Below are positions 4,213-59,197 of a stretch of 64,000 bases of DNA, piece after piece. The stretch's first letter is position 1; every line of letters begins with the position of its first letter. The notes beneath the pieces were generated by a model. That model was not told the origin of the DNA and did no database searches. It saw only the letters and a list, made by a program, of their open reading frames with translations. Made by a program: the position numbers and the translations under genes. This stretch comes from an uncultured Gammaproteobacteria bacterium (GTDB lineage: Bacteria > Patescibacteriota > Patescibacteriia > Veblenbacterales > UBA10138): the NCBI GenBank assembly GCA_964348825.1, contig CAYGDX010000001.1, positions 367,463 to 431,462 on the forward strand. Reading direction: 5' to 3'.

Positions 4213-5427
4213 ACTTAGTATCACTTGTGCTCGTTTAATTCCCGCTACTAGCGCATCAATATCTTCAGGTGTGTTATAAAGGCCAAAACTAGCTCGGGTG
4301 GTGGCTACTAAGCCCAATTTAGTGTGGAGTGGCATAGCACAGTGGTGGCCAGCCCGCACTGCGATATTGACTTCATCAAGTAAACTAGCTAAATCATGAG
4401 GATGAATTTTATTTACCACAAAAGAAAAAACTGCGCCGCGTTTACTTACATCGGTTGGCCCAACTAAACGTAGATTATTTATTTTTGTTAATTGTTCTAA
4501 ACCATAAGCGGTAATTTTATTTTCGTGTTCTTGAATATCGCGCCAGCCGATTTTGGTAATAAATTTTATAGCGGAGGCGAGCCCTACCACCTCTGCTATT
4601 GGTGGTGTGCCAGCTTCAAATTTATCAGGGACGTTGGTCCAAGTGGCATTTTCAAAACTTACTTCATTAATCATTCCCCCACCATACTCAAATGGTTCTA
4701 ATTTATTTAATAATTCAGTTTTGCCGTAGAGCACACCAATTCCAGTTGGACCATAAATTTTATGTCCAGAAAAAGCTAAGAAATCACAATTCAATTCTTT
4801 AACATCTATTTCCACATGCGCGGCGGCTTGTGAAGCGTCTATTATTGTTAATGCTCCCGCCGTGTGTGCTGATTTGATAATTGTTTTTAGGTTAGTAATT
4901 TCGCCGGTTACATTAGACATACCTGACACGCTCACAATTTTAGTTTTTGGGTTTATTAATTGATTTAAATCAGATAAAATTAATTGCCCATTTTCATCAA
5001 CTGGTATAAAACGCAAAATTAAGTTATGTTTTTGGGCCGCTTGTTGCCAAGGCACGAGATTGGCGTGATGTTCTAGTTCAGTTAATAAAATTTCGTCACT
5101 TGGTGTTAAATTTGTTGTTAAACTAGCGGCTAATAAATTAAGCCCACTGGTGGTACCACGGGTAAAAATAATTTCGTGTGGACTTTCGGCGTTTACAAAA
5201 TTAGCTACTGTTTCGCGCGCCTCTTCGTAAGCTAAACTTGCTTTTTCCGCTAATTTATAAACACCACGATGGATATTAGCATATGAAGTACGATAAAAAT
5301 TATCCATGGCTTTTAAAACTTGCTCTGGTTTTTGGGCCGAAGCGCCACTATCCAAAAATACCAAATCTTTGTTGATTGGGGCATTAAAAATTGGGAATTG
5401 TTCTTTGATTTTACTTTGGTCAAACAT
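4210..5427 (-). CDS. sufS: Cysteine desulfurase SufS (class V aminotransferase)
   Basis: FPIF...LVFLDSGASAQKP N-terminus, the SGHKIYGPTGIGVLYGK PLP-lysine motif and the active-site HHCA loop. The track ORF runs to 5487, but the likely true start is the ATG at 5425-5427 (MFDQSKIKEQFPIF), which overlaps the sufD stop. Confidence 0.85.
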   Translation of the reverse strand: MFDQSKIKEQFPIFNAPINKDLVFLDSGASAQKPEQVLKAMDNFYRTSYANIHRGVYKLAEKASLAYEEARETVANFVNAESPHEIIFTRGTTSGLNLLAASLTTNLTPSDEILLTELEHHANLVPWQQAAQKHNLILRFIPVDENGQLILSDLNQLINPKTKIVSVSGMSNVTGEITNLKTIIKSAHTAGALTIIDASQAAAHVEIDVKELNCDFLAFSGHKIYGPTGIGVLYGKTELLNKLEPFEYGGGMINEVSFENATWTNVPDKFEAGTPPIAEVVGLASAIKFITKIGWRDIQEHENKITAYGLEQLTKINNLRLVGPTDVSKRGAVFSFVVNKIHPHDLASLLDEVNIAVRAGHHCAMPLHTKLGLVATTRASFGLYNTPEDIDALVAGIKRAQVILS

Positions 5428-49781: not shown

Positions 49782-51569
49782 TTAAAATCCTAATTCCTTA
49801 AGATTTTTCTCAATATCTTTTTCTAATTCACGACCCTTTGTAAATGCTTCCCGGAGTTCTCCAGAGAGTTTTTGCATTTTTTCTTCAAAAGAAATTCCAT
49901 CATCTTCAATATCTGCAAGTCCGACATATCTTCCCGGGGTAAGAGTATATCCGTTCTTTTTTATTTCTTCTAGGTTTGCTGATTTACAAAAACCAGAAAC
50001 ATCTTCGTATTTTAGCGCTCCTTTTTCTTCACGCCATGAACGAACAGTACCCGCAATCTTTTCAAGATTATCTTTATTGAAAACAACCTGTTTTCGAGAA
50101 ATTTGTTCAAAAATATCTCGGGCATCAATAAAAAGAGTTTCACCTTTGCGATTACGGAAACGATCGCCACTTTTATTTTTTGCCAAAAACCACAAAGAAA
50201 CCGGGAGAGATACATTATAAAAGAGTTTTGATGGACAAGAAATAATCACGTCCACAAGGTCTGCGTCGATGAGCTTCTGACGAAGTTCACCCTCTTTTCC
50301 AGACACAGCAAGCGCTCCATTTGGCATAACGAATCCCGCATGTCCGTTTGGTGAAAGATGATGTGTAAAGTGTTGCACCCACATAAAATTTGCACTGCCA
50401 GAAGGCGGTACACCTAAAATAATGCGTGGGTCATTGTCAGAAAGTTTTTGAGGTTCCCATTCTGCATTAAACGGAGGATTGGCGATAACAAAATCTGCTT
50501 GAAGATTAGGAAATTTGTCTTGATAGTATGTATTGCCCAATTCTATTTTTCCTGAAAGTCCCCGAATAGCAAGATTCATTTTACAAAGACGAAGTGTTGT
50601 TTGATTGCTTTCTTGTCCACTGATAGAAAGCTTGGATGGATCCATTTTATGATCATGTAAATATTCTCCCATAGACACAAACATTCCACCACTACCGCAG
50701 GCAGGATCAAGAATGCGAGCGTTTTCATATGGCTCAAGAATTTCAACAAGAAGTTTTACAATAGAACGAGGGGTAAAAAATTCTCCTCCGCGCTTTCCTT
50801 CGGCAGAAGCAAATTGTCCCAAAAAATATTCATAGATGCGACCGAGAATGTCTTTTTCTCGGTCAAAATCGTGATCAAAAGAAATTTTAGAAAAAATATT
50901 TACCAATTCACCAAGAACAGTGTGGTCCAAATTTGTTTTTGTATATACACGAGGAAGAACATTTTCAAGTTGTACAGGATTATCTTTCTCAATCAATTCC
51001 ATTGCGTTGTCCAAAACTTTTCCCAAATCAGGACTCATGGTCTTTGTTTGTAAATATTCCCAACGAGATTTTTCCGGAACGTAGAATACACCCTCGGAAG
51101 TATAAAAATCTTTTGTTTCAAGAATTGCTTTTCGTGCTTCATCGGTCGGAACATAAAAATCTTCATTCTTTTTATCGCGAGTCATTCCCGTAAGAATTTC
51201 TCTGCGTTTATAGAATGAGTCAGAAATGTATTTCAAGAAAAGTAAGCCTAAAACTATGTTTTTATATTCCGAAACGTCTATATTTCCACGTAATTTATCT
51301 GCCGCCGCCCAAAGTTCTTTTTCAAAACCAAGGTCATGGTGATTAACCCCAGTCTTTTTGGAAATTGCTTTTTCTTGAGCTTTTTTTTGCTCTTCTTTTA
51401 TACGATCTTTTATTTGCTGAGATAAACTACCTATTTCATATAAAAAACCGGTACCTACTTCCTTAACCTTTAAATTGGCTTCGCCTTTTAATTTCTTTTG
51501 AATTGCCTGCCTCGTAACTCCCAAAATACGAGCCAAGTCTGCAGTTGAAATGTAGTCATTATTATTCAT
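49782..51569 (-). CDS. hsdM: Type I restriction-modification methyltransferase subunit (HsdM) with an N-terminal HTH extension
   Basis: N-terminal HTH region YISTADLARILGVTRQAIQKKL, then the HsdM N-domain and a gamma-class N6-adenine MTase domain (FFTPRSIV; NPPF motif VIANPPFN). The likely start is the ATG at 51567-51569; the track's TTG-start extension to 51587 would lie inside the promoter. Confidence 0.85.
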   Translation of the reverse strand: MNNNDYISTADLARILGVTRQAIQKKLKGEANLKVKEVGTGFLYEIGSLSQQIKDRIKEEQKKAQEKAISKKTGVNHHDLGFEKELWAAADKLRGNIDVSEYKNIVLGLLFLKYISDSFYKRREILTGMTRDKKNEDFYVPTDEARKAILETKDFYTSEGVFYVPEKSRWEYLQTKTMSPDLGKVLDNAMELIEKDNPVQLENVLPRVYTKTNLDHTVLGELVNIFSKISFDHDFDREKDILGRIYEYFLGQFASAEGKRGGEFFTPRSIVKLLVEILEPYENARILDPACGSGGMFVSMGEYLHDHKMDPSKLSISGQESNQTTLRLCKMNLAIRGLSGKIELGNTYYQDKFPNLQADFVIANPPFNAEWEPQKLSDNDPRIILGVPPSGSANFMWVQHFTHHLSPNGHAGFVMPNGALAVSGKEGELRQKLIDADLVDVIISCPSKLFYNVSLPVSLWFLAKNKSGDRFRNRKGETLFIDARDIFEQISRKQVVFNKDNLEKIAGTVRSWREEKGALKYEDVSGFCKSANLEEIKKNGYTLTPGRYVGLADIEDDGISFEEKMQKLSGELREAFTKGRELEKDIEKNLKELGF

Positions 51570-51577
51570 ACCAAGTA

Positions 51578-51623
51578 AGTGTAGCAAAACACTAATAGGT
51601 TGTCAAGTGACAACCTATTAGTG
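51578..51623 (-). promoter_or_regulatory. Promoter of the hsdM operon, embedded in a perfect 16-2-16 palindrome (candidate autoregulatory operator)
   Basis: On the minus strand, TTGACA (51601-51606), a 17-nt spacer, then TACACT (51578-51583), with the ATG 8 nt downstream. The palindrome CACTAATAGGTTGTCA-AG-TGACAACCTATTAGTG spans 51590-51623. Confidence 0.5.
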
Positions 51624-51879
51624 AATCAATCTGCCACAAAAATACTTAAAAAACAGTCTCAAAAAGTAGTTCTAAAAAATAGCCAATTTATTAATTACAA
51701 TGCTAGCAAATTTTACAAAAATTGTCTAAAAAATAACACTTCCTAATAATCAGCCAAAACACATACTTTTATCTCAATTTTCTACTAAATCATGCACGCC
51801 ACTGGACTTGGTATAACTAACGACAATTTAAACACTATTACAACCACACAATTTTAATTCAGCGTAACCCTATATTACA

Positions 51880-51912
51880 AAAACTTCCCCGCTATCTTGG
51901 GGAAGTTTTTTA
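51880..51912. terminator. Bidirectional intrinsic terminator
   Basis: AACTTCCCC/GGGGAAGTT stem flanked by an A-run and a T-run. It separates the HTH-ATPase gene unit from the RM operon. Confidence 0.65.
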
Positions 51913-52028
51913 CCTGTTGCCACAGATATATAATAGAAAAACTTGCATTCTTTTGCAAGAGTGTAACATAATGCATAGATGTCCACCCCGCTACACTTAT
52001 AAATCTAAACAAATAATTCTACGCATCG

Positions 52029-52187
52029 CTGGGAGACATGGATTCTGCGCCTTTTCGGCGCATCCGCCGTGAAGGCGGAGAACTACTTTATATTTAGATC
52101 CAGAATCTGTTGTCCCCGCCTTTTCGGCGCGCCTGCCTCCTCGGCAGGTAAATCGCAAATGAGGCGACTACCATTAAACGACCCCCT
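52029..52187 (-). repeat. Degenerate tRNA-Gln-like composite element (copy A)
   Basis: In minus-strand orientation it reads AGGGGGTCGTTTAATGGTAG, then a 52-nt insert, then GGACAACAGATTCTGGATCT, then about 50 nt, then AGAATCCATGTCTCCCAG. The tRNA-Gln D-arm, anticodon arm (CUG) and 3' end are interrupted by a structured module with GAAA-tetraloop hairpins. The acceptor stem is not complementary, so it is probably non-functional. Confidence 0.55.
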
Positions 52188-52211
52188 TAGTTTCGTAATT
52201 CAAAGTTCACA

Positions 52212-53261
52212 TTACTTTTTAATCTTTGCCTCATTTTTTGACCTCTCGACCATAAACCTTACTCCTTCTGACATATTAGATTCTTTAATTTCTATATCCG
52301 GATGAGCATTTTGAAAAACACGATAAATTTCATCAGCAAATGCTTGACCAACTACCGGCACACCATCAAAATCAAGTAGTATTATTTTAAATTTATCTAA
52401 ACCAAATAGAATTCGTCGTGCTTGTGAACGTGAAATATTAACACCGCCCATTGTAAAAAGTTTAACTCTAATTTCAGTTTTATCAAAACCATAATCACTG
52501 TCAACTGAAATATTTGTATACTTCTTGAACACATCAGTAAGGTGTAGCCCTGAATTAACATCGATTTCAAAAATAACCTTAGTACCTCTTTTTACTATTG
52601 GAATATTTTTTATATTTGGACCTTTTGCCGTAATGATAAGTTGATAACGGAAACTATTCAATATAAATGTATCTGCTGATTTAGAGGTAAAAAAAATCCC
52701 CTCTCCAGAATGAGATTTTGACATTGTTGTTGTTTTACCTTTGAGTAAATCTTGAATCGCCTCAATTTCAGAATGAAGCTTTTTTTTCTTCATAATATTA
52801 CGAAATACTCCCACACCCGAATCCTCTACTATAAAAGAAAGTTTGCTATCGCGAATCGCAACTTCAATATTTATTACTTTTGACTTCGAATGTTCAATCG
52901 CATTATTAAATATTTCAGAAAATGCAAAGGTAAAAATACTTTGAATGTTTTCTGGTAATTTTAGAAGCTGTGAAAATCTCTGCTCTACTTCCATAAGAAC
53001 TTTGTGTTCTTCTAATTTTATATTTTTATATTTTTTACGAAAAATAGATGGAAATACCTTGGGATTTTTTTCTGCATATTCCGTAGAAATGTAAAAGGCA
53101 GAGCGTGTTCCACCAAATTTTATTATTTCTTTTTCAAAAATAAGCTCTGCTATAAGTTGGTTTACATATTGGCGAGACACACCAAACTGCACAGAAAGCT
53201 CTTTAGTAGTCACTTTCCCTTGTTTATTCGCTATTTCTAGTATTTTTATTTTATTTATCAT
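52212..53261 (-). CDS. Three-domain protein: N-terminal winged HTH, GHKL/HATPase_c ATPase (anti-sigma-factor-kinase-like) and a C-terminal STAS-like DUF4325 domain
   Basis: HTH KVTTKELSVQFGVSRQYVNQLIAEL. GHKL N-box EIFNNAIEHS, G1 box VEDSGVGV and G2 box SGEGIFF. C-terminal LLDFDGVPVVGQAFADEIYRVF is typical of DUF4325. The likely start is the ATG at 53259-53261; the track's TTG-start ORF extends to 53294. Confidence 0.6.
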   Translation of the reverse strand: MINKIKILEIANKQGKVTTKELSVQFGVSRQYVNQLIAELIFEKEIIKFGGTRSAFYISTEYAEKNPKVFPSIFRKKYKNIKLEEHKVLMEVEQRFSQLLKLPENIQSIFTFAFSEIFNNAIEHSKSKVINIEVAIRDSKLSFIVEDSGVGVFRNIMKKKKLHSEIEAIQDLLKGKTTTMSKSHSGEGIFFTSKSADTFILNSFRYQLIITAKGPNIKNIPIVKRGTKVIFEIDVNSGLHLTDVFKKYTNISVDSDYGFDKTEIRVKLFTMGGVNISRSQARRILFGLDKFKIILLDFDGVPVVGQAFADEIYRVFQNAHPDIEIKESNMSEGVRFMVERSKNEAKIKK

Positions 53262-53271
53262 AAGCAAGTAT

Positions 53272-53312
53272 ATTGTAAACCAATCTATAATCAATTGTCA
53301 AGTAATTGACAA
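53272..53312 (-). promoter_or_regulatory. Promoter with a palindromic -35 region for the HTH-GHKL-STAS gene
   Basis: On the minus strand, TTGTCAATTACTTGACA includes a TTGACA -35 (53296-53301). A 17-nt spacer follows, then TACAAT (53272-53277), with the ATG 10 nt downstream. It shares the TTGTCA/TGACAA half-sites with the hsdM promoter. Confidence 0.5.
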
Positions 53313-53371
53313 CTAGCCCAGTAATGTTTTATATGAAACAAATCCGCCAAAATTGTTAATCATCGTCCCAA

Positions 53372-53491
53372 CTGGGAGACATGGATCCCTGTAGTATATC
53401 ACTTCGGTGATAACTACAGGGCGCGGTCGGCGCCTCTTCGGCGGGCCTGCCTCACCGGTAGGTAAATCGCTAATTAGGCGACTACTCATTC
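53372..53491 (-). repeat. tRNA-Gln-derived structured repeat (copy B), immediately 3' of the genuine tRNA-Gln
   Basis: It carries the same roughly 55-nt three-hairpin module as copy A (GTAGTCGCCTAATTAGCGATTTACCTACCGGTGAGGCAGGCCCGCCGAAGAGGCG). After that comes a perfect 13-bp hairpin with a CGAA loop, and then a copy of the tRNA 3' end, GATCCATGTCTCCCAG. Confidence 0.55.
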
Positions 53492-53500
53492 TCTATATAA

Positions 53501-53571
53501 CTGGGGGACATGGATTCGAACCATGATAAACAGATCCAGAATCTGTTGTCCTACCATTAGACGATCCCCCA
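53501..53571 (-). tRNA. tRNA-Gln (anticodon CUG)
   Basis: Hand-folded cloverleaf. Acceptor stem UGGGGGA/UCCCCCA with U1:A72 and discriminator G73, both Gln identity elements. D-arm GUCU/GGAC. Anticodon arm ACAGA-UUCUGGA-UCUGU. A 4-nt variable loop. T-arm CAUGG-UUCGAAU-CCAUG. No CCA is encoded. Confidence 0.85.
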
Positions 53572-53589
53572 ACGTATTTAAATTCTAAA

Positions 53590-53710
53590 CACTAAATCCG
53601 AAATCCTAAATAAATTTTAAAATCCTAAATTCAAATGTTTAAAACTTTTTTTTGGATTTTAGTCATTGGGATTTATTTGGGATTTAGAAATTAGGATTTA
53701 GGATTTTTAA
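53590..53710. repeat. Intergenic palindromic AAATCC-family repeat (copy 4) between tRNA-Gln and dnaX
   Basis: aaatccgaaatcctaaataaattttaaaatcctaaatt ... tttggattttagtcattgggatttatttgggatttagaaattaggatttaggattttt. Confidence 0.6.
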
Positions 53711-53780
53711 ACGATTGATATGTCTTATTAGTTGGGTTTGCTCTCTCAAATTTCGAGATTACAACCCAATCTACCTACCT

Positions 53781-55316
53781 TTACCCATCCACCACTTGCC
53801 CACCAAAAGTATTAAGCACACTGGAAAATAAATCAGGCGTGGTTGGTGGCGGGCTAACAATTGATTTTATTTTGAGAGTTGTGCCCATAATTTCCGCCAC
53901 CGCTTTTTCCACAGCTAAATTAATTTTGCTATCTGCTAAACGTTCTTTGTGTAATTTATATTGAAATGAAATAGTAAGTGCGCGCCCCACAAACTCTTTG
54001 GGCTCAGCCATACTTAAAATAAATGACAAAGAGTGATTAACTGGTTTTAATTTAGCAATCACTTGGGGCCACAACTGTTTAATTGATTCCAAAGTTAAAT
54101 CAGTTGGCGTAGTTGCTTCGGTTGATGAATTCTGAGGCACCTCCGCACTTGAATCACTTTGACTAACAACTGAAGCTTGACCACTGGCTGACGCTTTATT
54201 ATTCACCTCTTTTATTTCTGTGCCATTGGTACAAATAGTAATAATAGCAAGCTCTAAATTGAGCTGGGGAATTTCACTTTGCTTCCAACTATTTTCGGCC
54301 TGCGACCAAGTTTGAATAATAAATTGTAAACGCGGCATAGTTAAACCTTCGGCTGATTTGGCCACCGCTATTTGCTCATCTTTCGCCAATAAATTTATTT
54401 CTTCGCTTAATTTTTGTCCACCTAATTTATAAAGCATTATCAAACGCAAAAAATTTAATACTTGACTATAAAAAACTGATAATTCCCCACCCTCATTCAA
54501 ATAATCATTAAGAATTGTGATACCTTGAGCCGCGTCACGTTTGATTAAAGCGCTAATTATATTTTGCACTACTTCAGTATCAACTTTTGGTAAAACTAAA
54601 TTGGCGCGGGCGGAATCTATTTTACTGCCACCTAATCCTAAAACTTTACCGAGTAAACTTTCAGCATCGCGCACCGAACCTTGGGCGAGGTATGCCACGC
54701 GGCGCAAAACTTCATCATCTACCTCAATTTTTTCTAAACCAATTAAATCATTTAAACGGATAAGTAAAACATCAACCGCCACACGATGAAAATCAAAGCG
54801 CTGACAACGGGAAATAATAGTGGCTGGCACTTTGTGAACATCAGTGGTCGCTAGAATGAATACCACGTGCGCTGGCGGCTCTTCTAAGGTCTTTAAGAGC
54901 GCGTTAAAGGCCTCGGTGGTAAGCATATGCACTTCATCCACAATAATCACCTTATAGCGTGAACCGGCTGTGCCTAGTGGGATATTTTCACGAATAGCGC
55001 GAATATCATCAATCCGCCGGTTCGAGGCGGCGTCGAGCTCTAAAACGTCAAGTGATAAACCGCGAGTTATGGCGACACAAGAATCACACTCACCGCACGG
55101 CTCGCCTGAATTCGCCTTCTTTTTTTCGCAGTTTAAGGCCTTGGCGAGTAATCGCGCTACAGTGGTCTTGCCTACTCCGCGCATGCCGCAAAATAAATAA
55201 GCGTGGGCTAATTGCCCACTTAAAATTTGTTGAAGAAGTGTGGTTTTAATATGTTCTTGCCCCACCAAATCACGGAAGAATTGCGGGCGATATTTACGGT
55301 ATAAAGTAGTAGACAT
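53781..55316 (-). CDS. dnaX: DNA polymerase III subunit gamma/tau
   Basis: AAA+ Walker A GMRGVGKTT, a Zn module CGECDSC, box VII/sensor motifs and a C-terminal tau-like extension. Confidence 0.9.
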   Translation of the reverse strand: MSTTLYRKYRPQFFRDLVGQEHIKTTLLQQILSGQLAHAYLFCGMRGVGKTTVARLLAKALNCEKKKANSGEPCGECDSCVAITRGLSLDVLELDAASNRRIDDIRAIRENIPLGTAGSRYKVIIVDEVHMLTTEAFNALLKTLEEPPAHVVFILATTDVHKVPATIISRCQRFDFHRVAVDVLLIRLNDLIGLEKIEVDDEVLRRVAYLAQGSVRDAESLLGKVLGLGGSKIDSARANLVLPKVDTEVVQNIISALIKRDAAQGITILNDYLNEGGELSVFYSQVLNFLRLIMLYKLGGQKLSEEINLLAKDEQIAVAKSAEGLTMPRLQFIIQTWSQAENSWKQSEIPQLNLELAIITICTNGTEIKEVNNKASASGQASVVSQSDSSAEVPQNSSTEATTPTDLTLESIKQLWPQVIAKLKPVNHSLSFILSMAEPKEFVGRALTISFQYKLHKERLADSKINLAVEKAVAEIMGTTLKIKSIVSPPPTTPDLFSSVLNTFGGQVVDG

Positions 55317-56590: not shown

Positions 56591-59197
56591 TTATAATGTC
56601 GCCTCCGAAGCCGGAGCTGAACCTTGTGAGCCCGCTTCGCCAAGTTTAGTACGATCCATAATATCAGCATCTACTTCGGCGCGCGAGCGCGCGTATTTAA
56701 GGCGCGAGAGGGCCTTAATTTTTTCAGCCAAAGTCGCATCACCCTTACCCGGTGGCAAAGTGCGCATATTAAATGGTCGCGACGGTGCATTATCAATTAA
56801 TAATTTAATATAGGCATTGTATTGCTCTACGTTCACTAAATCATAAGCCGAGAAAACCGGCGCGAATTCTTTGGCAATTAATTCAGCATCTTCCACGCCA
56901 ATTTTAAAGGAAATAATAGTACCAGTAGTACCAAGCACCGCATCGCGAACTTTCGTATTACCCTTGTCTTGCATCAATTGGCCTAAATATTGATGCGCAA
57001 TAATTAAATCCAAACGATATTTTCGGGCCTCGGATAAAATTGTGGAAATAGAATCGGTAATAAAGTTTTGGAATTCATCAATATACAAATAAAAATCATT
57101 ACGTTCGCTTTCGGCCATATTCGCCCGCGCCATCGCCGCCATTTGAAGTTTTGAAACTACAATTAACCCTAAGAGCGACGAGTTCACTTCTCCGGTTTTA
57201 CCTTTGGATAAATTCACCAACAATATCTTACCTTTATCCATTACCTCGCGAAAATCAAAACCACTTTTAGCTTGGCCAATAATATTTCGCATCATTTCAT
57301 TTTCCACAAAACGACCAACTTTGGAAATCAAATACCCCAGCATTTCTGATTTATGGAAATCCGAAGTTTTGGCCATTTCTTTTTCCCAAAAGGCGCGCAC
57401 TACTACATCTTTTAATTTACTAACTTTGTATTTTTGAAAAGCTGGATCAGTAAACATGCGCGGAATATCGGCAATCGTACCTGGCGAACTTTCATCAGCC
57501 ATTAAAGTCAGCATCACGTTGCGCATATTATGTTCAAACATTGGACCAATCATTTCCGGTGGAAAAAGTTTGTAAAAAATCGCAATCATTTCTTGCACCA
57601 CAAAATCTTTTTGATTTTCGTCGTGGAATTCAAGCATATTTAAGCCCATTGGTCGCTCAATATCGGAAGGATCAAATACAATTACATCATCGGCCCTTTC
57701 CACCGGCACTTGCCTGAGCACGCCTTCCACTAAATCGCCATGCGGATCCACCACACAAACACCCTTGCCGGCTTTAATATCTTGCACAATCATATTTTCA
57801 AGTAGCACCGATTTACCAGTACCTGATTTACCAATAATATACATATGGCGCCGGCGATCATCATCTTTTATTTTTACCTCTACTTCTTCACCGCGGTAAT
57901 AATTTATACCCAAAGTTAGGCCGATTTTTGGAATATTAACTGGCGCTGAAGCACGCCGAGCCGCGAGCCAGCGAATATTAGGCGTTTCGGAAGAAGGTAG
58001 TGGGAAATGAAAAAGCGAAGCGAGCTCTTCAGTATTTAAAATAAAGCGTTTACTATATTGAAATGTACGATGAATAAAATTATAAAAAAACCGATTAGAA
58101 TTCCACGGATGTTTAAAAACAAAAGCATTGCCATACTCATAAATATTAAACTGAGCAAAAGCATTTAAAATATTTCTTAAATACATTTCCGCTGTAGTTT
58201 GATTTTCCCCCATTGCTACTACACGCGCTACAATTTCAAAACCGGCTTTAGAGGCCTTTTGTTCTATACCTTTAACCATTTCTTGCTCTAAGGGTGATAA
58301 TTTATAATCAGTCGGCGGCTTCATTTTTTGATCAGGTTGACTGGCGCTAGTGGGCACCATACCACCTAAAGCACTTAATCCCTTAGAAAATAAACTTCGG
58401 CCGGAAGCATCAGAGGAATTTTTACCTTGCTGCATTCTGGAGGCAAGTTTTACACCTTGACTACGCCAACTAGTCGGCGCCGAACGCACTACTAATTGAA
58501 CTGCCGCCCCATATTCAGTGGGAATTTTTGACATTACATTAGTAATACTATTTAATGGATCGGTTTCAAATTGCTTATAGGTTTTTATTGGGTAAGCAAA
58601 ACCACGCGCTAATTTCATATACGAACCAACTGCCACACCTTGGGGCGAAAAAATATTGTAATCTGGCTCTTCTTCAATTTGGGCGTGCGGATATTGCGCA
58701 TTGATTTGTTGCTCTACAAAAGCCTGGTTTTTGCGAGGAATAGCCACGTAAAAAGATATCATGCCGTTATCCGCCACAATTTCTAAAGCATAATGATCCG
58801 AGCGACCTAAAATAAAATTTTGACATTTTTTAATTATTTTACGGAAAAAAGAATGTGGCTTTAAGCCAACTAAACCAGATAGTAAGATTTCGGCCACGGA
58901 AATTTGCTCTTGAATTTGTTGTGAAGCTGGTTTATCTTGCTTAGCCGCGGCATCGGGCTGACCAACTTCGCGTGGCAAACGCACGAGTAGTATCGCCATA
59001 CCTAAAGAGGCGTGTACTTGATTAATTTTGTGACGTACCGCTCGCCAAAAAATAAATAAAACAACTACAATAAATAAAGTGGTAATTGAAAACCAAAAAC
59101 CAGGTCCAAAATCAAAACTTGGGACTTGCGTATTATACTGCAATCCAATATTAAGATTTTCAAAATCGTAGGGATTATTTTCTGGCATAATTACCAA
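56591..59197 (-). CDS. VirD4/TraD/TraG-family coupling-protein-like ATPase, with N-terminal TM segments and a TrwB-type DNA-binding ATPase domain
   Basis: Two N-terminal TM helices, Walker A IIGKSGTGKSVLL, Walker B YLYIDEFQNF and the helical all-alpha insertion typical of type IV coupling proteins. Confidence 0.7.
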   Translation of the reverse strand: MVIMPENNPYDFENLNIGLQYNTQVPSFDFGPGFWFSITTLFIVVVLFIFWRAVRHKINQVHASLGMAILLVRLPREVGQPDAAAKQDKPASQQIQEQISVAEILLSGLVGLKPHSFFRKIIKKCQNFILGRSDHYALEIVADNGMISFYVAIPRKNQAFVEQQINAQYPHAQIEEEPDYNIFSPQGVAVGSYMKLARGFAYPIKTYKQFETDPLNSITNVMSKIPTEYGAAVQLVVRSAPTSWRSQGVKLASRMQQGKNSSDASGRSLFSKGLSALGGMVPTSASQPDQKMKPPTDYKLSPLEQEMVKGIEQKASKAGFEIVARVVAMGENQTTAEMYLRNILNAFAQFNIYEYGNAFVFKHPWNSNRFFYNFIHRTFQYSKRFILNTEELASLFHFPLPSSETPNIRWLAARRASAPVNIPKIGLTLGINYYRGEEVEVKIKDDDRRRHMYIIGKSGTGKSVLLENMIVQDIKAGKGVCVVDPHGDLVEGVLRQVPVERADDVIVFDPSDIERPMGLNMLEFHDENQKDFVVQEMIAIFYKLFPPEMIGPMFEHNMRNVMLTLMADESSPGTIADIPRMFTDPAFQKYKVSKLKDVVVRAFWEKEMAKTSDFHKSEMLGYLISKVGRFVENEMMRNIIGQAKSGFDFREVMDKGKILLVNLSKGKTGEVNSSLLGLIVVSKLQMAAMARANMAESERNDFYLYIDEFQNFITDSISTILSEARKYRLDLIIAHQYLGQLMQDKGNTKVRDAVLGTTGTIISFKIGVEDAELIAKEFAPVFSAYDLVNVEQYNAYIKLLIDNAPSRPFNMRTLPPGKGDATLAEKIKALSRLKYARSRAEVDADIMDRTKLGEAGSQGSAPASEATL

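Follow-up and report, generated by a model that had tools for sequence, protein, structure and literature searches.

Locus organization

We analyzed two tRNA-like copies, A and B, that lie beside a tRNA-Gln gene in a 64-kb stretch of contig CAYGDX010000001.1 (the window, meaning the whole stretch of DNA analyzed), together with the hairpin module which both copies share and which is a diverged form of a 33-nt double-hairpin repeat, here called M. Relatives and metagenome loci are labelled with L-numbers (L001, L086 and so on). The features of the locus all lie on the minus strand, in this order:

55316-53781, minus strand: dnaX
53501-53571, minus strand: tRNA-Gln(CUG), functional
53490-53372, minus strand: copy B, made of a D-loop remnant, a three-hairpin insert, a further hairpin (hp6) and a tRNA 3′ end
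52212-53261, minus strand (ATG at 53261): GHKL gene, encoding a 349-aa protein with helix-turn-helix (HTH), HATPase_c (GHKL ATPase) and DUF4325 (STAS-like) domains (Pfam)
52187-52029, minus strand: copy A, a full-length tRNA-Gln(CUG) relic with D-loop and T-loop inserts (alignment)
51587-49782 (hsdM) and 49005-47914 (hsdS), hsdR beyond, minus strand: type I restriction-modification (RM) operon (Pfam)

The tRNA-Gln(CUG) had been taken as genuine in the initial annotation, and we confirmed this: ARAGORN called it (53500-53572) and Rfam RF00005 matched it with 63 bits against a gathering score of 29. No second tRNA was detected in the window by ARAGORN or by Rfam at the gathering threshold.

Repeated tRNA-Gln segments and a shared hairpin module

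Copies A and B had been described as re-using segments of the tRNA-Gln gene, and repeat searches bore this out. The tRNA 3′ end, GAATCCATGTCTCCCAG, was found at three sites with no more than one mismatch (52029-52045, 53372-53388 and 53501-53517), a number reached in 0 of 100 shuffles. Furthermore, 20 nt of copy A covering the D-stem and the anticodon arm, CUG included (52096-52115), are identical to the tRNA. The module of ~55 nt reported for both copies was also recovered, with 85% identity over 60 nt between 52112-52171 and 53426-53485; a degenerate 26-mer of it matches these two sites only in the window, with 0 matches expected by chance. Both copies fold more stably than shuffled sequences (z = -3.7 and -4.4).

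Two details did not withstand inspection. The loops, given as GNRA-type GAAA, are actually 5-nt loops, GAAAA or GAAGA. No compensatory change was found between A and B to account for the co-varying bases claimed, and the middle hairpin of copy B has an A.C mismatch. Neither copy was called as a tRNA by ARAGORN or gave an Rfam tRNA match even at E≤10; at that threshold, 51600-53800 and L086 3400-5000 returned only tRNA and chance matches (AgvB, miRNA, snoRNA).

Element M, a dispersed double hairpin

M has a core of 31-33 nt and consists of two hairpins, GTCGCC-TCATC-GGCGAC followed by CCGCC-GANRA-GGCGG(G). It was found by a pattern scan of a metagenome collection, with a variable gap allowed between the first and last hairpins. 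The family was detected at >120 metagenome loci, which is a lower bound, with 108 unique canonical contexts among the matches listed. Nearly all of the listed matches have the same core, and the positions left free by the pattern are nearly invariant. Since the pattern fixed most M columns, the power to detect covariation was low, and the sole pair varying on both sides was a stem pair changed from C-G to U-A in 4 copies.

A covariance model, R1, was built from 87 M copies; its short calibration makes the following E-values rough. R1 matched the D-loop insert of copy A (52171-52129; 24.4 bits, E 5.6e-6), aligning hairpins 1 and 2 as M, and hairpin 3 is therefore an extra copy of the second hairpin. 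It also matched the T-loop insert of copy A (52082-52042; 18.2 bits, E 5e-4, with a + strand match of 16.7 bits) and, partially, copy B (53443-53431, 14.6 bits, E 0.007; 53485-53448, 9.2 bits). Over the whole 64 kb, R1 gave no match besides copies A and B. At the position of L086 orthologous to the window modules, a canonical M (4729-4767) scored 60.7 bits, and the three-hairpin variant was found in L086 and L215 as well. Taken together, these matches indicate that the window module is a diverged three-hairpin derivative of M. With more than 120 loci in the family and a canonical copy at the orthologous site of L086, the module is clearly neither unique to this locus nor unconserved.

Expansion of M by tandem single hairpins was seen in L164, L205, L115 and L156, and the three-hairpin module of the window is one such variant. 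The N-terminus of an open reading frame (ORF) in L164 reads SPHRRPW three times, from three tandem copies of hairpin 1; other modules carry an extra hairpin between the canonical two.

The bases G, T and A at positions -3, -2 and -1 of M were present in 44, 40 and 68 of the 87 copies, respectively, mostly in tRNA D-loops, whose own sequence includes GGTAG. In ~45% of M copies, both window copies included, GTA-G stands immediately before the stem.

No Rfam family matched M at E≤10 in the window region or L086 3400-5000. The M and module patterns had 0 matches in the 2.9 million viral contigs of IMG/VR, so M is not obviously phage-borne. Literature searches on the sequence, the encoded peptide, palindromic repeats of the candidate phyla radiation (CPR) and GIY-YIG genes with tRNAs returned no description of M, within an incomplete literature coverage. 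The M family, and the cassette presented below, appear to be undescribed.

Anatomy of copies A and B

An alignment of the window tRNA, copy A, copy B and two L086 elements resolved the parts of both copies. Copy A is composed as follows:

52168-52187, minus strand: 5′ part, with a degenerate acceptor 5′ strand AGGGGG (1 base deleted) and an intact-looking D-stem/D-loop, TCGTTTAATGGTAG
52116-52167, minus strand: D-loop insert of ~52 nt, a three-hairpin M variant, after tRNA A21 (model R1 and alignment)
52096-52115, minus strand: D-stem 3′ strand and anticodon stem-loop (CUG), the stretch identical to the genuine tRNA
52046-52079, minus strand: T-loop insert "Mb" of 34 nt, TCCGCC-TTCAC-GGCGGA TGCGCC-GAAAA-GGCGCA, between TTC and GAATCC
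52029-52045, minus strand: tRNA 3′ end (T-stem and acceptor 3′ strands), found by repeat search and alignment

Copy B, with the trailer that precedes it, reads:

53482-53500, minus strand: trailer TTATATAGAG and D-loop remnant AATGAGTAG, which form the right arm of a leader/trailer inverted repeat and begin copy B
53431-53481, minus strand: module, a three-hairpin M variant, TCGCC-TAATT-AGCGA, TTTA, CCTACC-GGTGA-GGCAGG, CCCGCC-GAAGA-GGCG
53388-53420, minus strand: hairpin hp6, CCTGTAGTTATCACC-GAAG-TGATATACTACAGG, a third insert (fold), AT-richer and restricted to this lineage
53372-53387, minus strand: tRNA 3′ end (T-stem 3′ and acceptor 3′ strands), GATCCATGTCTCCCAG (repeat search and alignment)

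The 5′ part of copy A is 89% identical to tRNA positions 53551-53569. Between the anticodon loop and the T-loop insert, its anticodon 3′ strand, variable region and T-stem 5′ strand are mutated. Three stems are broken: the acceptor stem by a 1-nt deletion and an A.A pair, the anticodon stem by a 3′ strand reading TCTAA and not TCTGT, and the T-stem by loss of its 5′ strand. Copy A has no counterpart in L086 and is an unsplit, M-bearing relic, with segments ~97% identical to L086.

Copy B is without the acceptor 5′ strand and the anticodon arm. A "composite" element of L086 holds all parts in a single piece, and in the alignment copy B and the composite are deletion/insertion variants; copy B apparently lost the anticodon arm and Mb by deletion between repeated CGCCGAAGAGGCG hairpins. 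Hairpin hp6 is shared with the L086 composite and L001 and is not present in copy A. We conclude that, judged by their sequence, copies A and B are repeat-riddled pseudogenes of a second tRNA-Gln(CUG) gene and not tRNAs. As relics, they most likely have no function today.

The T-loop, GGTTC/GAATCC, which holds the palindrome TTCGAA, received independent M-like double-hairpin insertions of opposite orientations in tRNA-Gln relics: Mb in the window (52046-52079) and an Mb-like insert in L178 (534-571, opposite orientation). Another small hairpin lies there in L096 (~300-330). In L215 (2960-3130), a third tRNA-Gln relic downstream of a cassette carries unrelated GC-rich hairpins in its anticodon loop and T-arm. 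The tRNA-Gln relics thus seem to gather several kinds of hairpin insert.

M as an insertion in tRNA and protein genes

A D-loop of tRNA sequence, with D-stem complementarity across M, surrounds 20 of the 108 listed contexts under a strict rule, and more by eye. ORFs of 150 aa or more contain another 26, 16 of these in one frame encoding VASSATRRxGG; the remaining contexts are intergenic or on short contigs. Pfam placed in-frame copies in GyrB, between the Toprim and C-terminal domains (two loci), in glutamyl-tRNA synthetase (GluRS) and in MurD. Since GluRS orthologues with 81-84% identity are without exactly the 11 M-encoded residues, M is an insertion.

In the GluRS alignment (A3, columns 107-135), P0127 and P0130 carry another insertion of ~13 residues, EITPEIEQARFGAGRTGER, replacing the usual EI-KEAGQ exactly at the M site of another orthologue. 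This suggests that the GluRS site is an insertion hotspot, or that a second repeat family is present.

M marks junctions of tRNA fragments, and an intact gene for the same isoacceptor or a related one lies next to these fragments (Gln, Thr, Met, Pro, Arg and others). We also considered M as a simple tRNA insertion and rejected this, deletion of M followed by ARAGORN having restored a tRNA in only 1 of the 108 listed contexts.

Taken together, these observations establish that M is a palindromic, structured DNA repeat which occurs as an insertion, which proteins tolerate and which bounds segments inserted into tRNA D-loops. A miniature mobile element inserting into tRNA genes had been one of three explanations offered initially for the module, and it came closest: the dispersed 33-nt family agrees with it. 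The restriction to tRNA genes did not hold, given the copies in GyrB, GluRS and MurD, and in tRNA contexts M marks the breakpoints of fragments.

An M–GIY-YIG–tRNA-Gln cassette in relatives

Wherever a GIY-YIG ORF shares at least 59% identity with the query, M lies no more than ~40 nt upstream of the start codon; 19 of these loci have canonical M, and L086 and L087 have a diverged variant. M was not found upstream of more distant GIY-YIG paralogues. In a sample anchored on GIY-YIG and not on M, all 6 loci (4 protein clusters, one named Roizmanbacteria) had M upstream, and in the same 6 loci a complete tRNA-Gln starts within ~15 nt of the stop codon or overlaps it.

These genes form part of a cassette. 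Its left half consists of tRNA-Gln nt 1-21, M and (G)GACA, followed by the GIY-YIG gene, which encodes 81-91 aa with a catalytic domain only. In the right half, a complete tRNA-Gln between a leader arm and a trailer arm is followed by a D-loop remnant, M, GGAC and the rest of tRNA-Gln. Removal of the first M through the second M produced a perfect outer tRNA-Gln in L200/L104 and L121, with acceptor stems that are matched (TACGGGA/TCCCGTA, TGCGGGA/TCCCGCA) yet unlike that of the inner tRNA. The outer halves are decayed in L137, L178 and L174 and identical to the inner tRNA in L215, and the cassettes of L210 and L213 have no tRNA 3′ part. In this layout, a resident tRNA-Gln is broken within its D-loop, and the cassette encloses a complete tRNA-Gln as its replacement. 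Cassettes were also found at the ftsX-linked tRNA-Gln(UUG) locus (L210, L214 and L215).

The inner tRNA-Gln is flanked by a leader/trailer inverted repeat of 6-14 bp that extends the acceptor stem; its sequence is lineage-specific and always complementary. It may be an RNA processing helix or a DNA-level repeat, and was recorded at the following loci:

L200, L137, L178, L121, L174, L096, L160, L215 and L129: both arms
L086, 4627-4721: both arms
Window, 53491-53500: right arm only, the matching left arm missing

Close relatives of the window locus are L086 and L087, from Hainich groundwater and an NCBI metagenome-assembled genome (MAG), whose GHKL protein is 97% identical to that of the window. 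Their order is dnaX, a methyltransferase gene, the 5′ fragment with a three-hairpin M, the GIY-YIG gene, tRNA-Gln(CUG), the composite relic, the GHKL gene and an EcoRI-like methylase gene. The GIY-YIG ORF is thus present at their homologous locus, as it is in L215. The window tRNA-Gln(CUG) aligns with the inner complete tRNA of the L086 cassette. Moreover, the trailer, D-loop remnant and M that follow the window tRNA are homologous, in the same order, to the cassette right end in L086, L129 and L215, and copy B is therefore the outer 3′ part of a cassette.

A probable cassette remnant in the window

The explanation that we favor, and consider probable, is that, besides one working tRNA-Gln(CUG), the locus contains a second tRNA-Gln(CUG) that was colonised by small GC-rich palindromic repeats and survives as two decayed pieces, the remnant of a cassette. 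The window would then represent a decayed and rearranged form of the cassette without its nuclease gene.

In this proposal, the GIY-YIG nuclease, reduced to its catalytic domain, would act on M hairpins or a cruciform, or on the tRNA-Gln gene itself. The cassette would move or be copied by repair or recombination initiated at a nuclease break, with M as the structured site, and the complete tRNA-Gln enclosed in it would make up for the broken resident gene. Where M stands alone, it would be a miniature derivative of the cassette. The nuclease part would have disappeared from the window lineage. Recombination between repeated stretches of tRNA and M sequence could have doubled the relic, leaving one on each side of the GHKL gene, and could also have swapped flanks between two tRNA-Gln loci.

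Several points weigh against this interpretation. The window has no GIY-YIG gene (by tblastn) and no 5′ fragment, so its link to the cassette rests on the homology to L086, L215 and L129. The order of events behind copy B, GHKL and copy A cannot be derived uniquely from an L086-like arrangement. We infer mobility of M from its presence or absence among orthologues and from the near identity of its dispersed copies; neither a transposition intermediate nor a target-site duplication was identified for M, nor was a transposase dedicated to it, no systematic search for RAYT transposases having been made. M is also low-copy: R1 found none in ~480 kb from 80 other CPR genomes and none elsewhere in the 64 kb, so M is unlike classical high-copy repetitive extragenic palindromic (REP) sequences. 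Its apparent invariance is partly ascertainment, because the search pattern had fixed most positions. Finally, the small GIY-YIG gene could have a conserved housekeeping role and be linked to tRNA-Gln by synteny alone.

A stronger version of the favored explanation is possible, if doubtful on present evidence. M and the small GIY-YIG gene would form an unrecognised pair of autonomous and non-autonomous mobile elements, in which the cassette fractures the tRNA-Gln D-loop and delivers a replacement, M serves as the nuclease site, and solo M copies have spread to tRNA and essential protein genes. As a selfish element, the cassette could not be lost without losing the tRNA, because it delivers a complete replacement tRNA-Gln. 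Alternatively, M may be a REP-like repeat mobilised by something else, or may act mainly as a 5′ stabiliser of a GIY-YIG mRNA transcribed from the tRNA promoter.

The junction between tRNA-Gln(CUG) and copy B

Among the megahit contigs of ERZ27247837, L001 (1-1100) has copy B, the GHKL gene, copy A and RM genes after a tRNA-Gln(UUG) beside ftsX, and L002 (11746-12221) has dnaX and tRNA-Gln(CUG) followed by unrelated DNA. The window is identical to L002 (100%) up to 53501 and corresponds to L001 beyond (99.92% overall, 53571-42212); it joins L001-type and L002-type sequence at the shared tRNA 3′ half, at 53500/53501. Contigs of the Logan collection end at or within the tRNA. Here the window differs from each of L001, L002 and L086, and the locus is variable.

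Either the flanks of two tRNA-Gln loci were exchanged in nature or one assembly was mis-joined. The second possibility, a chimeric join of tRNA-Gln(CUG) to copy B through sequence common to the two tRNA-Gln genes, would account for the two ERZ27247837 arrangements, the switch of the window from one to the other and the ends of the Logan contigs. We nevertheless think it unlikely. The DnaX and GHKL proteins are both on one NCBI record (longest contig 469,265 nt), the related L086 also runs from dnaX to tRNA-Gln(CUG), relic and GHKL gene, and the anticodon arm of copy A is of the CUG type. In any case, a mis-join would bear only on which tRNA-Gln precedes copy B; the nature of copies A and B is unchanged by the question.

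The GHKL gene between the copies

The protein encoded between the copies is very widespread and conserved to an unusual degree: it has >6900 homologues at ~70% identity, of which the few with a source name come from Patescibacteria MAGs of several candidate phyla. It matched no PADLOC defence model. At 80 genome loci of GHKL homologues, searches with blastn-short (copies A and B, tRNA and modules) and with R1 detected no module. The gene has a promoter of its own downstream of copy B, and a candidate terminator follows copy A:

53272-53312, minus strand: near-consensus promoter TTGACA-18-TACAAT, 11 of 12 matches (promoter scan), with an overlapping palindrome
51942-51959, minus strand: terminator-like hairpin (consensus scan only)

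A homologue with 82% identity (L088/L089) keeps the promoter/operator region TTGTCAAT.ACTTGACAATTGATTATAGATTGGTTTACAATA and has no tRNA-like element. The palindrome TTGTCAATTACTTGACAA overlaps the GHKL promoter (53295-53312 and 53272-53301, respectively), is conserved in the same homologue and is likely an autoregulatory operator. The gene was found beside different RM genes, type I RM in the window and an EcoRI-like methylase in L086. We conclude that the GHKL gene is not part of the repeat family and not a partner of the elements.

Other explanations for the repeated tRNA segments

The initial annotation had also proposed nested att-site remnants. Successive integrations at the tRNA-Gln 3′ end would have left attL/attR-like ends bracketing the GHKL gene (and the RM genes), with the module as att-flanking sequence. 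Part of this proposal stands: the site is a hotspot of variation, and the cargo gene does lie between direct repeats. The tRNA 3′ end occurs as three direct repeats, the DNA after tRNA-Gln varies by assembly or strain and includes defence genes (type I RM; the EcoRI-like methylase in L086), and ~9 of the 80 GHKL-homologue loci lie just downstream of a same-strand tRNA gene, the identity of which varies. As an account of copies A and B we regard it as improbable. With its 5′ acceptor strand, D-arm, anticodon arm and 3′ end, copy A is the relic of a whole gene and not a 3′ duplication; element 1 of such a nest would measure just 128 nt; many tRNA genes have M-bearing fragments beside them, across a spacer of 15-60 nt and with no island; M is missing from the IMG/VR contigs; and relatives carry a GIY-YIG gene at the locus. 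No integrase domain was present among the Pfam families listed for genes called on contigs covering window 42.2-64 kb, which agrees with the integrase-free region described initially.

The third initial proposal, tRNA-derived regulatory RNAs in the untranslated regions (UTRs) of the adjacent gene, can be widened to functional tRNA-like non-coding RNAs: copies A and B would act as processing signals, as decoys or as regulators of the GHKL gene in its 5′/3′ UTRs, and proteins would bind to the module. Both copies do fold much better than shuffled sequences, their hairpins are GC-rich in a genome of 35% GC, the segments of copy A are well conserved in L086, and copy A lies between the GHKL stop codon and the terminator-like hairpin, which, if functional, would place it in the 3′ untranslated part of the GHKL transcript. 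Palindromic DNA repeats, however, fold well regardless of function. The UTR version was rejected because the 80 homologous loci carry no module, the 82%-identical homologue is without the element and the promoter lies downstream of copy B, with copy B upstream of the -35 box. The broken acceptor, anticodon and T stems, the large indels among A, B and L086 and the lack of compensatory changes between the copies count further against a functional RNA, which we consider very improbable.

A split or intron-containing tRNA, with outer halves still functional and joined at the RNA level by pairing of M or excision of the M-to-M interval, would fit the perfect tRNA-Gln restored in L200/L104 and L121, its matched acceptor stem unlike the inner one, and the lineage-specific helix of 6-14 bp that always encloses the inner tRNA, but it can hardly be right, given that L137, L178, L174, L086 and the window have degenerate outer halves, that L210 and L213 have no 3′ part, that no group I intron signal was found by Rfam at E≤10 in the window region or L086, that no bacterial enzyme is known to join such tRNA halves, and that the broken stems of the window copies already refute it there. 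A group I intron, whether in the GIY-YIG-containing interval or in the window, was rejected on the same lack of an Intron_gpI match and on the position of the inserts in D- and T-loops.

Further features near the locus

A perfect palindrome of 16+16 nt, CACTAATAGGTTGTCA..TGACAACCTATTAGTG, lies at 51590-51623, just upstream of hsdM (49782-51587), the product of which has an unusual N-terminal HTH (Pfam HTH_11). The half-sites are similar to those upstream of the GHKL gene, and their spacing differs. The spacer between dnaX and the tRNA (53579-53711) is filled by AT-rich inverted repeats of AAATCCTAAAT-like units, with arms of 25-29 nt that are 80-83% complementary. Upstream of dnaX, amid housekeeping genes, 56591-59197 encodes an 868-aa protein with TrwB/TraG-type coupling-protein and HerA/DUF87 ATPase domains.

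Comparison with known systems

In function, the nearest analogues of M and its cassette are the first three systems treated here. Rickettsia palindromic elements (RPE) are palindromic repeats of ~100-150 nt inserted in-frame in proteins and in RNA genes. M resembles them in being a short, palindromic and hairpin-forming DNA repeat, in its status as an insertion when orthologues are compared, in lying in-frame in conserved proteins (GyrB, GluRS, MurD) and inside RNA genes, and in occurring in small AT-rich genomes of host-dependent bacteria; the miniature inverted-repeat transposable elements of Coxiella are similar intragenic palindromic repeats. By analogy, M would behave as a selfish palindromic element of the RPE/REP type. 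It differs from RPE in its length of 33 nt, its two adjacent GC-rich hairpins, its low copy number per genome as sampled, and its tight linkage to a GIY-YIG gene and fractured tRNA genes.

GTAG-tagged REPs and REPINs are mobilised by RAYT transposases (PMC3733652; PMC3337134). M falls in their range of 20-40 bp GC-rich palindromes, some REPs are intragenic as well, and in both cases one dedicated nuclease-type gene is flanked by the repeat. The GTA-G that precedes the stem in part of the M copies may be a further likeness; in tRNA contexts, GTAG is plain tRNA D-loop sequence. Unlike in REPs, the gene of M is GIY-YIG and not an HUH/Y1 RAYT, and M is not high-copy, has 26 of its 108 listed contexts in ORFs and is mostly solitary rather than arranged in inverted dimers.

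Free-standing GIY-YIG homing endonucleases are found beside tRNA genes, phage T4 SegB being an example (PMC2988022, PMC13096335), and homing endonuclease genes have also been described as splitting other genes, which are then called "fractured genes" (PMC2677866). The cassette likewise has a small GIY-YIG ORF between the parts of a broken gene or beside tRNA genes, its presence varies among close relatives (window versus L086), and flanking gene segments are duplicated. Its protein, however, has a catalytic domain only (81-91 aa), the gene that it interrupts is a tRNA gene with the break in the D-loop, the cassette encloses a complete tRNA as replacement, and its ends carry a conserved double hairpin; any cleavage or homing would be hypothetical.

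With tRNA-targeted islands the locus shares a variable, defence-rich region downstream of a tRNA gene and directly repeated tRNA segments. It differs in having no integrase among the Pfam families over window 42.2-64 kb, in repeats that include tRNA 5′ parts, in a breakpoint in the D-loop and not in the anticodon or T loop, and in a tRNA that is replaced whole and not reconstituted.

Finally, group I introns of several hundred nt reside in Patescibacteria tRNAs, self-splicing from anticodon loop position 35/36 (PMC13011429). They too are insertions that hide or disrupt tRNA genes in this phylum. M, in contrast, is 33 nt long, lies in the D- or T-loop and has no group I signal, and the tRNA copies that host it are fragments.

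Implications

Copies A and B should be annotated as tRNA-Gln pseudogenes with repeat insertions; the labels tRNA, regulatory RNA and att site of a known island should be avoided. Beyond this locus, a 33-nt double-hairpin repeat is scattered through Patescibacteria and adds 11 in-frame residues to the essential proteins GyrB, GluRS and MurD. M and its cassettes would mislead tRNA and gene annotation in CPR genomes, and they would create recombination hotspots beside tRNA genes, where defence genes vary. If the link to the nuclease is causal, M and the small GIY-YIG gene would represent a new partnership of palindromic repeat and nuclease, comparable to REP/RAYT, in the most reduced bacterial genomes.

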